From contig CAWIAD010000002.1 in assembly GCA_963833985.1 (NCBI GenBank), positions 2,304,001-2,368,000 of the forward strand: a stretch of DNA of 64,000 bases, in the 5' to 3' direction. Below the pieces are notes generated by a model. The model did no database searches and had not been told where the DNA came from. It saw nothing but the letters and a program-made list of their open reading frames with translations. Shown here in pieces: positions 26,857-29,483 of this stretch (position 1 is its first letter; every line of letters begins with the position of its first letter). Source of the stretch: an uncultured Planctomycetaceae bacterium (lineage in GTDB: Bacteria; Planctomycetota; Planctomycetia; Isosphaerales; Isosphaeraceae). Both the position numbers and the translations under genes were made by a program.

Positions 26857-26950
26857 ACTCCCGGCCAAGCTGCTGGCCAGGGGGCGAGGCCCTGCGACAA
26901 GGGCACCGCCCCGCGCCCAGAGGCGAGGGGAAAGAAATCTCGGTTGATTG

Positions 26951-27187
26951 CTACGGTCGTCCAGAACTCTTGGGCATCGTCTCGATCAGGGCCCGGAGCA
27001 GGCTGTTGACCGACTCCGCGGTGGTGAACACCTTGCTCACATCCGGGTCAAGGGCCACCACCAGCCGATCTCGATCGCTCGGGCTCGCAAACCGATTCGG
27101 CCGGGCTTGCGTGTAGTCAAACGCATACTCGGAACGAAGCTCGTCCGATGGCTCCAGCGGGCGGTCACCCACCTTGGTCTTCTTCAT
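26951..27187 (-). CDS. BrnA-like antitoxin (78 aa) inside the 16S-23S spacer
   Basis: MKKTK...DELRSEYAFDYTQARPNRFA...VVALDPDVSKVFTTAESVNSLLRALI, the typical partner of DUF497 toxins; overlaps the toxin 3' end by 23 nt. Confidence 0.85.
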   Translation of the reverse strand: MKKTKVGDRPLEPSDELRSEYAFDYTQARPNRFASPSDRDRLVVALDPDVSKVFTTAESVNSLLRALIETMPKSSGRP

Positions 27188-27455
27188 GGGCTGTACGTTC
27201 TTTCCGCGTCGCCGGCCGGGCACTGATGATCCGCACGAGGCCGGGGCCTCGCTCGGTAAAGTTCACGAGCAGCAGCCGGCGGAGAATCGAGTGGCCCACA
27301 AGGATCTCGCGCGTCTCCTCGATCGAATGGTCCTCATCATAAAAGATCCTGGCCAGCGGATCATCGAAGACGGTGGACGCCTCGTCGAAACCGACTCCAT
27401 GCCTGGTCAGGTTGGAGGCGGCCTTGACGGGGTCCCACTCGAATTTCAGAGCCAT
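27165..27455 (-). CDS. brnT: BrnT-family (DUF497) ribonuclease toxin inside the 16S-23S spacer
   Basis: FEWDPVKAASNLTRHGVGFDEASTVFDD...DEDHSIEETR...RIISARPATRKER; the whole family pattern is intact. Confidence 0.92.
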   Translation of the reverse strand: MALKFEWDPVKAASNLTRHGVGFDEASTVFDDPLARIFYDEDHSIEETREILVGHSILRRLLLVNFTERGPGLVRIISARPATRKERTAHEEDQGG

Positions 27456-27629
27456 CACGAAACGTCACAAGCCAACTGTGGTGCAAACCCCCAAGGGGAG
27501 CCGGCGGGCGTGCCGCGGGATCGAGGTCCGGGGATGGTGCCGACGTGGCCTTATCGAGTTCGGGAAGCGAAGCCTGGCGGCAACACTTCCTGGGTGAACT
27601 CTCAGGCCGGTTTTCCAAGGTTGTCCTTA

Positions 27630-29141
27630 GAAAGGAGGTGATCCAACCGCAGGTTCCCCTACGGTTACCTTGTTACGACTTAGTCCCCATCACGGGTTTC
27701 ATCTTCGGCGCCTGCCTTGCGGCTCCGACGACTTCGGATGCCCCCCGCTTTGGTGGCTTGACGGGCGGTGTGTACAAGGCTCAGGAACACATTCACCGCG
27801 GCAGTGCTGATCCGCGATTACTAGCGATTCCAGCTTCATGCGGGCGAGTTGCAGCCCGCAATCCGAACTGAGGAGCGATTTTTGCGATTAGCTCGACCTT
27901 GCGGCCTGGCGACGCTTTGTCCGCTCCATTGTAGCACGTGTGCAGCCCTGGGCATAAGGGCCATGATGACTTGACGTCGTCCCCGCCTTCCTCCGGCTTG
28001 ACGCCGGCGGTCTGATCAGAGTCCCCGCCATGACGCGCTGGCAACTGACCACAGGGGTTTCGCTCGTTACGGGACTTAACCCAACACCTCACGGCACGAG
28101 CTGACGACAGCCATGCAGCACCTGTGCAGGTTCCTCCTTGCGGCGTCAGATGCGTTTCCGCATCCTAATCCCTGCATGTCAAGCCCAGGATAAGGTTTTT
28201 CGCGTAGCCTCGAATTAAGCCACATGCTCCACCGCTTGTGTGAGCCCCCGTCAATTCCTTTGAGTTTCAGCCTTGCGACCATACTCCCCAGGCGGGGCAC
28301 TTCACGCTTTCGCTACGGCAGAGAGCCCATCGGCGAGCCCCCTACCCAGTGCCCATCGTTTACGGCTAGGACTACCGGGGTATCTAATCCCGTTTGCTCC
28401 CCTAGCTTTCGCGTCTCAGCGTCAGCAGACGTCCAGGACCTCGCTTTCGCCACGGGCGTTCCTTCCGATCTCAACGCATTTCACCGCTCCACCGGAAGTT
28501 CCAGGTCCCCCTACGTCCCTCCAGACGGGGCGTTTCGGCACCACTTCCCCGGTTGAGCCGGGGGCTTTCAGTGGCCGACGTTCCCATCCGCCTACACGCG
28601 CTTTAAGCCCAGTGATTCCGAATAACGTTCGCACGGTTCGTCTTACCGCGGCTGCTGGCACGAACTTAGCCCGTGCTTCCTCCAGGGATCGGTCAAGGTT
28701 ACCCCTTCCTCCCCCTCGACAGGAGTTTACAACCCGAAGGCCTTCATCCTCCACGCGGCGTCGCTCGGTCAGGCTTGCGCCCATTGCCGAAGATTCTCGA
28801 CTGCAGCCTCCCGTAGGAGTCTGGGCAGTGTCTCAGTCCCAGTGTGCCGGGCCACGCTCGCACGCCCGGTAGGCATCACAGGCTTGGTGGGCCGTTACCC
28901 CGCCAACGACCTAATACCACGACGGCCCGTCCCACGGCGCCTGAGCTTTGGTCAAATACCGATGCCGGCACTTGACGTCGCTGGGGATTACCCGCAGTTT
29001 CCCGCGGCTATACCCAACCATGGGGTTGGTTACCGTCGCCTTACTCACCCTTGCGCCACTGACCTGTTGCCAGGCCCGTTCGACTTGCATGCCTAATCCA
29101 CGCCGCCAACGTTCATTCTGAGCCAGGATCAAACCCTTCAC
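27630..29141 (-). rRNA. rrs: 16S rRNA
   Basis: Minus strand begins gaagggtttgatcctggctcag, contains gtgccagcagccgcggtaa and aagtcgtaacaaggtaacc, and ends ggatcacctcctttc. Confidence 0.98.
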
Positions 29142-29470
29142 AATGATGTCAACCCGCTTCGCAGAGCCCGAGAGCCCCGGCCGCGGATCAACCCTCACCT
29201 CGAAAGGTTGAGGAAAAAAAACTGGTCGCATCAAGCCCCTGGCAAGGCGGTTTCACAACCGTTCTGCCGGGAACTTGCTGCCGGTCCTGTGCAGGCCATC
29301 CCACGGCAGCCCAGGCGCTTCGGACCACGAAGGCCGGGCCGCCCCGAGGCTGCGGCCGCACGCCGGCTCCCCTCAAGGGTTTCTCACCACAGAACGGATG
29401 AATCTCATCCATCGTGTGCTTGCAATTCTCTTGCGTTCTCGTTTTCTGGCTGACGAGTGCAATCAACCGG

Positions 29471-29483
29471 ATTGTCAAAGAGC
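29471..29483 (-). promoter_or_regulatory. leader boxA
   Basis: Minus strand GCTCTTTGACAAT, similar to the boxA consensus TGCTCTTTAACA, between the promoter and 16S. Confidence 0.75.

Follow-up and report, generated by a model that had tools for sequence, protein, structure and literature searches.

A BrnT toxin gene cassette at a helix junction of the predicted 16S rRNA processing stem in a planctomycete

Gene content of the rRNA operon

The window, the 64,000-nucleotide (nt) stretch of DNA analyzed here, comes from an uncultured Planctomycetaceae bacterium (assembly GCA_963833985.1, contig CAWIAD010000002.1, positions 2,304,001 to 2,368,000) and carries a ribosomal RNA (rRNA) operon, rrn, with two small protein-coding genes between 16S and 23S rRNA: brnT, which encodes a BrnT-type toxin, and a partner gene encoding a putative antitoxin. 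This report concerns the position of these two genes, hereafter the cassette, within the stem that the rRNA leader and the 16S-23S spacer are predicted to form around 16S rRNA. All features described below lie on the minus strand. The 16S rRNA gene (27631..29144; Rfam RF00177, 1446.9 bits) and the 23S rRNA gene (23630..26431; Rfam RF02541) are separated by a spacer of 1199 nt, in which a tRNA search found no tRNA genes, and the spacer genes share the orientation of both rRNAs, a one-transcript layout.

The brnT gene (27165..27455) has its ATG at 27455, with an alternative upstream GTG possible at 27458. Its product matched PF04365 (Ribonuclease toxin, BrnT) over the full-length domain (E 9.3e-25; 87.2 bits against a cut-off of 34.5) and kept 19/19 positions that were invariant in a 15-sequence alignment. 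The partner, taken from the listing of open reading frames (ORFs), encodes 78 amino acids (aa) at 26951..27187. It starts at an ATG at 27187, with an MKKTK start conserved in orthologues, so that the gene order is toxin then partner and the partner ORF overlaps the end of brnT by 23 nt. The ratio of nonsynonymous to synonymous substitutions, relative to orthologues in the rrn operons of other species, was 0.06 to 0.15 for brnT and 0.14 to 0.26 for the partner, at a synonymous divergence near saturation, and points to purifying selection on both genes. GC content at third codon positions of the cassette was 0.73 to 0.77 in the window, and the GC content of the genome was 0.649.

The host genome (10.16 Mb in 2 contigs) has three rrn copies, and exactly three BrnT matches over the Pfam cut-off, all of them in these copies. 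The spacer stretch queried with the cassette (window 26800-27700) was 100% identical among the three, and a three-copy alignment showed zero differences anywhere in the spacer. Near-identity extended from ~29597 to ~23277, interrupted at a few positions of the leader, of 23S and of the stretch behind 23S. Each copy has its own promoter and terminator, the promoter version of each copy lying just upstream of the identity boundary at ~29597.

For the partner, no match was found in NCBIfam or PADLOC, a profile search of the PDB returned designed helical repeats only, and no Pfam family was found either for 21 aligned partners (E ≤ 0.01) or for the window's own (E ≤ 10). The Pfam, NCBIfam, PADLOC and PDB searches thus did not place it in the BrnA antitoxin family, and the label antitoxin follows only from where the gene lies and from its conserved association with BrnT. 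Partner homologues were present in 21/79 BrnT loci from other phyla, in 20 cases within 170 nt downstream of BrnT. When the window's partner (26954-27187) was aligned with those of 20 loci, it appeared as a small-protein family kept beside BrnT in several phyla, with the near-invariant motifs EYD, LDPDV and ESVN..LR. A modeled BrnT-partner complex scored 0.50 against 0.01 for the best control, which is weak support. The mark applied to these models was reached by 116/157 solved and 2/215 mismatched pairs, and at ≤0.60 only by 18/157 solved pairs together with both mismatches. Model runs agreed in at least 76% of contacts, with a partner pLDDT of at least 64.

Pairing of the leader with the spacer

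Pairing was predicted by folding leader, linker and spacer together, with minimum free energy folds for 12 operons. RNAduplex run on the whole leader against the whole spacer gave uninformative full-length duplexes, and folding of leader, linker and spacer was used instead. In the window, the outer helix of the predicted 16S stem, H1, comprises 28 base pairs (bp; 29476-29444 with 26966-26934) with a mean pair probability of 0.89 to 0.92. The 5′ strand of H1 (29444..29476) follows directly on a leader boxA-like element (GGCTCTTTGACAAT, 29471..29484), starting within its GACAAT. This element was read from the sequence and was kept in the leaders of all aligned operons. The 3′ strand (26934..26966) covers the last five codons of the partner ORF, its TAG stop and 17 nt beyond. 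The core of H1 is an exact 11-nt complement that the original prediction had pointed out and that was found as described: CGGTTGATTGC reads at 29459-29469 on the minus strand and at 26941-26951 on the plus strand, and the two stretches are complementary in RNA. As also claimed there, the complement begins at the G of the antitoxin stop codon, the partner ORF ending at 26951 with TAG at 26953-26951.

Taken alone, the 11-mer is not significant compared to chance. Exact leader-spacer complements of at least 11 nt arose in 47/300 dinucleotide shuffles of the spacer, and the pattern with at most one mismatch was not enriched in the window, with 3 matches and at least 3 in 17/100 shuffles. These numbers are what would be expected if the match were a coincidence in a GC-rich spacer, structurally idle, and the reality of the pairing therefore rests on conservation and covariation in relatives. 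Leader and spacer sequences were taken from 35 operons in 26 genomes, and for H1 the 14 nt after boxA were set against the spacer partner in 34 operons from 25 genomes, with 25 distinct strand pairs. G024, in whose spacer the H1 3′ strand was sought and not found, was dropped from this count, and the site was placed by hand in the window (W), G107 and G108. The two strands paired in 92.9% of cells, compared to a mean of 82.2% (sd 1.4, max 86.9) when partners were shuffled among operons, although the share of paired cells is biased by the choice of each 3′ strand for its best complementarity. The observed pairing was reached by 0/2000 of these partner shuffles. Double-sided, compensatory changes occurred at positions 6, 10, 12, 13 and 14, with two to four Watson-Crick pair types each, and pairing fell to 18 to 41% in slid registers. 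Given the covariation at the same place across the 34 operons and the lack of any shuffle matching it, we conclude that H1 is a real helix found family-wide, and that chance complementarity is a highly improbable explanation. The covariation extends to relatives with and without the cassette, a comparison that had been put forward with the original prediction as a check on the stem.

The folds placed further helices inside H1. The inner helix, H3, has 45 bp (29392-29342 with 27526-27476) and a pair probability (P) of 0.98; its 5′ strand (29342..29392) has a near-invariant sequence in the family, and its 3′ strand (27476..27526), placed from the folds and the relatives, lies between 16S and brnT. 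Next to it is H4, with a 5′ strand at 29284..29306, a 3′ strand at 27528..27544 and 17 bp (29306-29284 with 27544-27528; P 0.69). Two short helices, H2′ (8 bp, P 0.79) and H2b (10 bp, P 0.86), have their 5′ strands within 29415..29442 (H2′, 29442-29434; H2b, 29425-29415) and their 3′ strands within 27457..27474 (H2b, 27474-27465; H2′, 27464-27457), ending 2 nt before the ATG of brnT. Pairing of the H2b type was also predicted in G009, G002 and G010, while the H2′ pairing with 27464-27457 was predicted in this genome only, as a replacement for the usual H2 pairing; in relatives the partner of the leader motif ACGAGAA sits after the cassette.

The 3′ strand of the stem thus runs unbroken from 27544 to 27457 and resumes from 26966 to 26934, and the gap of ~490 nt between these segments is brnT and its partner. 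The same multi-helix architecture was predicted in 12/12 folded operons, with or without a cassette, and nothing separates the outer from the inner helices in G004 and G013. Since H3 is near-invariant, its pairing rests on energy and on the conservation of both strands, and since it uses a leader segment other than that of H1, the two helices do not compete. The folds and alignments together indicate that the 16S stem is composite, that 16S is already enclosed by H3 and H4 before brnT is reached, and that the cassette is an insertion in the 3′ strand of the stem between the inner and outer helices.

This arrangement bears on the original prediction, in which a single 16S stem closed past the antitoxin stop codon, so that pre-16S carried a 3′ trailer of 680 nt, the toxin-antitoxin mRNA, to be released or destroyed by 16S 3′ maturation. 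The part that placed both genes inside the leader-spacer stem agrees with our results: H1 is real and its strand closes after the cassette, and a consensus scan for E. coli-type signals showed no promoter or terminator between 16S and brnT. The simple trailer does not fit them. H3 and H4 (45 and 17 bp) enclose 16S ahead of brnT in every folded operon and are contiguous with H1 in cassette-free relatives, so a cut in H3 would split 16S from the cassette first. These helices supply, in part, what the original prediction had named as evidence against itself, namely a better and conserved pairing strand between 16S and brnT, although this strand pairs elsewhere in the leader. Nor is the contact between stop codon and helix, to which the original prediction drew attention, conserved. 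In the junction alignment, the partner stop of the other carriers lies ~22 to 50 nt before the H1 strand, and the interval contains the H2 strand TTCTCGTT; this genome differs by a change of the partner TGA to CGA and by a spacer deletion of ~39 nt that includes the usual H2 3′ strand. As a consequence, the ORF runs into H1, and the contact is an accident of this genome. We therefore consider a single stem with a toxin-antitoxin trailer quite unlikely.

A corresponding stem around 23S, already noted in the original prediction, was recovered by folding. It has 18 bp (26822-26804 with 23447-23428; P 0.89), and its 5′ strand (26804..26822) follows a spacer boxA-like element (GTTCCTTGACAAT, 26824..26836) that was read from the sequence and is conserved in relatives, with the 3′ strand at 23428..23447. 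Both the leader and the spacer element are taken as boxA-like from their resemblance to the boxA consensus.

The junction between H3 and H1 in related genomes

In a DNA search that covered 41 related genomes and was then widened to 121 family genomes, full-length cassette spacers were confined to the genus of the window and occurred in G009, G002 (2 copies), G007 (2) and G005 (1). Copies lacking the cassette and having both flanking strands were present in the same genus in G002:C1, G005:C29, G010, G004 (three copies) and G013, and cassette-bearing and cassette-free copies thus coexist within G002 and within G005. In all three rrn copies of the window's genome the cassette sits exactly at the H3/H1 junction. 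This junction measured 21 to 120 nt in the majority of operons, but 358 nt in G067 and ~550 to 700 nt in cassette carriers. The sequence immediately upstream of brnT is stem strand, and the cassette-free G010 has conserved it; the start of brnT lies 2 nt past a predicted helix here and 5 nt past one in two relatives (G002 and G009). G010 (L042, G010:C2) carries a mini-ORF of 39 nt at ~175 to 215 after 16S, in which codons 1 to 3 of brnT continue in frame into the final nine partner codons, a scar of the deletion by which this copy lost the cassette.

A protein search detected BrnT in 41/121 genomes of the family. Among the best 30 BrnT loci of the family, six lay beside rRNA, five belonging to the known carriers and the sixth to G090, a member of another genus. 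Both rrn copies of G090 carry brnT (PF04365, E 3.7e-25) and a partner at the same junction, and H1 is perfect and covaried there; the two cassettes are at L178:2347-2890 (G090:C1) and in L179 (G090:C19). The GC content of this brnT is 0.47, compared to ~0.67 for the genome, and 95 AT-rich nt precede the gene. Owing to this foreign composition, the insertion in G090 is probably younger and separate. In G067, from a third genus (L144, G067:C27), the spacer at ~138 to 400 after 16S contains a brnT pseudogene (tblastn E 9.5e-16) disrupted by an in-frame stop and by a frameshift. The pseudogene is apparently fused to a partner tail and is most similar to BrnT copies of the rrn type.

Other cargo was found at the same junction. 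Both rrn copies of G088 carry an unrelated two-ORF cassette (L180:2292-2945 in G088:C26, and L181 in G088:C32). Its ORF1 encodes ~107 to 119 aa with CPHCG...CPHPDC motifs, its ORF2 encodes 95 aa, and the H1 3′ strand follows ~10 nt past the stop codon of ORF2. Neither ORF matched a family in Pfam or PADLOC, and a protein atlas gave weak leads only (DUF1062 at 0.90 with few shared features; ORF2 at 0.81). In G024 (L051, G024:C41), an insert of ~690 nt with a short partner-like motif, LQAEYQDLDYRNV, occupies the junction at ~160 to 850 after 16S. Flanking direct or inverted repeats bounding the cassettes were absent in the window, G090 and G088, and hence no transposition signature was found.

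Taken together, these comparisons indicate that cargo has settled at the H3/H1 junction repeatedly within the family. For this reason, a mobile addiction module is the most likely origin of the cassette, which then probably spread between rrn copies by gene conversion. In quick BrnT trees, the rrn copies of the genus formed one clade (SH-aLRT 94 and 89) beside free-standing copies of the family, and G090 fell in a polytomy with five free-standing family copies; the trees speak neither for nor against a single origin of the rrn-located brnT genes. A scan of 185,579 species genomes gave 79 BrnT-relative loci, one of them beside rRNA, in G009 of the same genus; the scan used exact peptide words and so covers close relatives only, and the distribution is not bounded by it.

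Transcription and processing of the cassette

A consensus scan identified one promoter-like site upstream of 16S (29631..29659; TTGACC, 17 nt, TATGAT, with an A-tract before it), which was the sole sigma-70-like match within 26400-29800. With this E. coli-type consensus, no promoter-like site was found before brnT or 23S and no convincing terminator in the spacer, and the same held for the brnT and spacer of G090. The 5S rRNA gene (23281..23388) lies downstream of 23S and is followed in each copy by a hairpin and a T-run terminator, as seen in the three-copy alignment. Since 23S and 5S lie downstream of the cassette and no other promoter-like site was found, transcription would start from the rrn promoter, RNA polymerase would cross the cassette on every rRNA transcript, and toxin-antitoxin RNA would be made in equal numbers with rRNA. 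In the intact stem, the brnT start, adjacent to or within a helix, would likely be blocked. The genome encodes RNase III (TIGR02191, 218.7 bits, over the cut-off), and cuts by this enzyme in H3 and in H1, each longer than two helical turns, would free a brnT-partner message of ~0.55 kb, from which translational coupling would give toxin and partner together. On balance, and with modest confidence, we favor the reading that the cassette of ~490 nt lies inside a multi-helix 16S stem, is transcribed only within pre-rRNA and is likely released by RNase III. The original prediction had treated the lack of an obvious Shine-Dalgarno sequence before the toxin gene as fitting dampened translation, and we dropped this argument because motifs of this type are rare genome-wide, a Shine-Dalgarno-like 5-mer core preceding ~13% of long ORFs compared to 3% in a control (with crude first-ATG start calls).

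The same locus could instead hold passive cargo, that is, a selfish addiction module with its own autoregulated promoter of the kind usual in type II systems, sitting at an insertion-tolerant junction, with its pre-rRNA copy degraded and the stems irrelevant to its expression. The highly variable junction length, the cargo differing by lineage (brnT cassettes, a pseudogene, a scar and the two-ORF cassette of G088) and the copies with and without cassette side by side in G002 and G005 would all fit this, and the low GC content and AT-rich upstream flank of the G090 brnT are expected of a recent mobile arrival. What speaks against it is that the promoter-like site such a module would need was missing from the E. 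coli-type scan both here and in G090, and that the 2 to 5 nt between stem strand and ATG in this genome, G002 and G009 leave little room for an imported promoter or operator. Moreover, polymerase must traverse the cassette to reach 23S and 5S, so the message would be made at rRNA rates regardless, and the cassette has long been retained under purifying selection. We regard passive cargo as possible and, on this evidence, doubtful.

Several points count against release of the cassette from pre-rRNA by RNase III, in addition to the selection of best-complement strands in the H1 comparison. The promoter scan, built on an E. coli-type consensus, could miss a planctomycete promoter inside the spacer. 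H1 is weaker in the window (11/14 ungapped) and in G007 (12-13/14) than in most cassette-free operons, and covariation of H3 was not recoverable, as only 4 strand-pair types were found by pattern and both strands are near-invariant. A cut in H3 alone would leave the toxin-antitoxin RNA attached to the pre-23S spacer. Two carriers have apparently damaged genes: brnT of G009 (L034, G009:C10) is frameshifted near its N-terminus, and the partner of G007:C51 (L037) seems to be frameshifted over a short out-of-frame stretch, either of which may reflect decay or a (long-read) assembly error. Finally, a search for sequencing runs returned no RNA run and two DNA metagenome runs with 0.05 to 0.08 of the sampled words.

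If release from pre-rRNA is correct, the layout would link a toxin-antitoxin module directly to the growth-rate and stringent control of rRNA promoters, a link of which literature searches turned up no example. A toxin message made once per rRNA transcript would pose a dosage problem, to be solved by structure, processing or decay, and the operon would offer a natural system for studying the translation or silencing of an mRNA that forms part of pre-rRNA. A further step would be to see the H3/H1 junction as a dedicated expression slot that locks two-gene modules to rRNA synthesis, the BrnT pair acting as a brake coupled to ribosome synthesis: with rrn on, a message excised by RNase III would supply toxin and partner together; with rrn off, the partner would not be replenished, the BrnT ribonuclease would be freed and translation would stop. 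We consider this unlikely. The long 16S processing stem tolerates a bulge of 0.5 to 0.7 kb at one defined junction that different cassettes have used repeatedly, which bears on rRNA maturation, on the way in which gene conversion carries selfish modules from one rrn copy to another, and on engineering. In practice, the difference of ~450 nt in spacer length between rrn copies of one genome (G002 and G005) affects internal transcribed spacer (ITS) typing and long-read rRNA-operon amplicons.

Relation to known systems

In rrn operons of the E. coli type, the strand behind boxA pairs with sequence located 3′ of 16S, and RNase III cleaves the resulting stem. The window resembles this in having a boxA-like element followed by a spacer-pairing strand, a second boxA and a stem around 23S, and an RNase III gene in the genome. 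It differs in that the 16S stem is predicted to reach ~100 bp in four or five helices, with a 3′ strand split by a 490-nt two-gene cassette. The spacers of ordinary rRNA operons carry tRNA-Ile and tRNA-Ala genes, whereas the spacer here has no tRNA. Like such tRNAs, the cassette would be a functional RNA located between 16S and 23S, produced one-to-one with rRNA and, as proposed here, freed by processing; unlike them, it is an mRNA that needs translation, and it lies within the 16S stem, whereas the tRNAs sit between the two stems.

BrnT/BrnA is a type II toxin-antitoxin system with its prototype in Brucella. Like it, the cassette encodes a full-length BrnT domain and has the toxin gene first, with a small overlapping gene next. 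Unlike it, the partner here has no Pfam match and no match to a solved antitoxin structure, and the locus is in an rRNA operon, where the E. coli-type scan detected no promoter of its own. The early mRNAs of phage T7 are polycistronic messages processed by RNase III at local hairpins between genes. Both ends of the mRNA would be set by cuts in double-stranded RNA in either case, but the duplexes predicted here are long-range, involve a leader more than 2 kb upstream and are shared with rRNA maturation.

Protein genes in linked rRNA spacers have been described in CPR bacteria, the gene named in the part of that study considered here being a homing endonuclease (Lui et al. 2021, PMC8172020). The window shares with those operons the presence of co-oriented protein genes between 16S and 23S, with the operon seemingly still linked. 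The part of that study considered describes no relation to a stem, whereas here a toxin-antitoxin pair occupies a covarying stem junction in every rrn copy of a planctomycete. Full-text literature searches gave no report of a toxin-antitoxin module located in a spacer or processing stem of rRNA. Both components described here, the leader-spacer stem and the BrnT module, are ordinary; their combination at a repeatedly used junction is undescribed.

Additional features of the operon

The stretch that separates the 3′ strand of H1 from the spacer boxA (26839-26917) contains two conserved GC-rich hairpins in a boxB-like position, and these were present in nearly all operons of the family. In the leader upstream of boxA (29504-29524), two rrn copies agree and the third departs from them in a cluster of seven positions, which may be compensated changes in a local hairpin.

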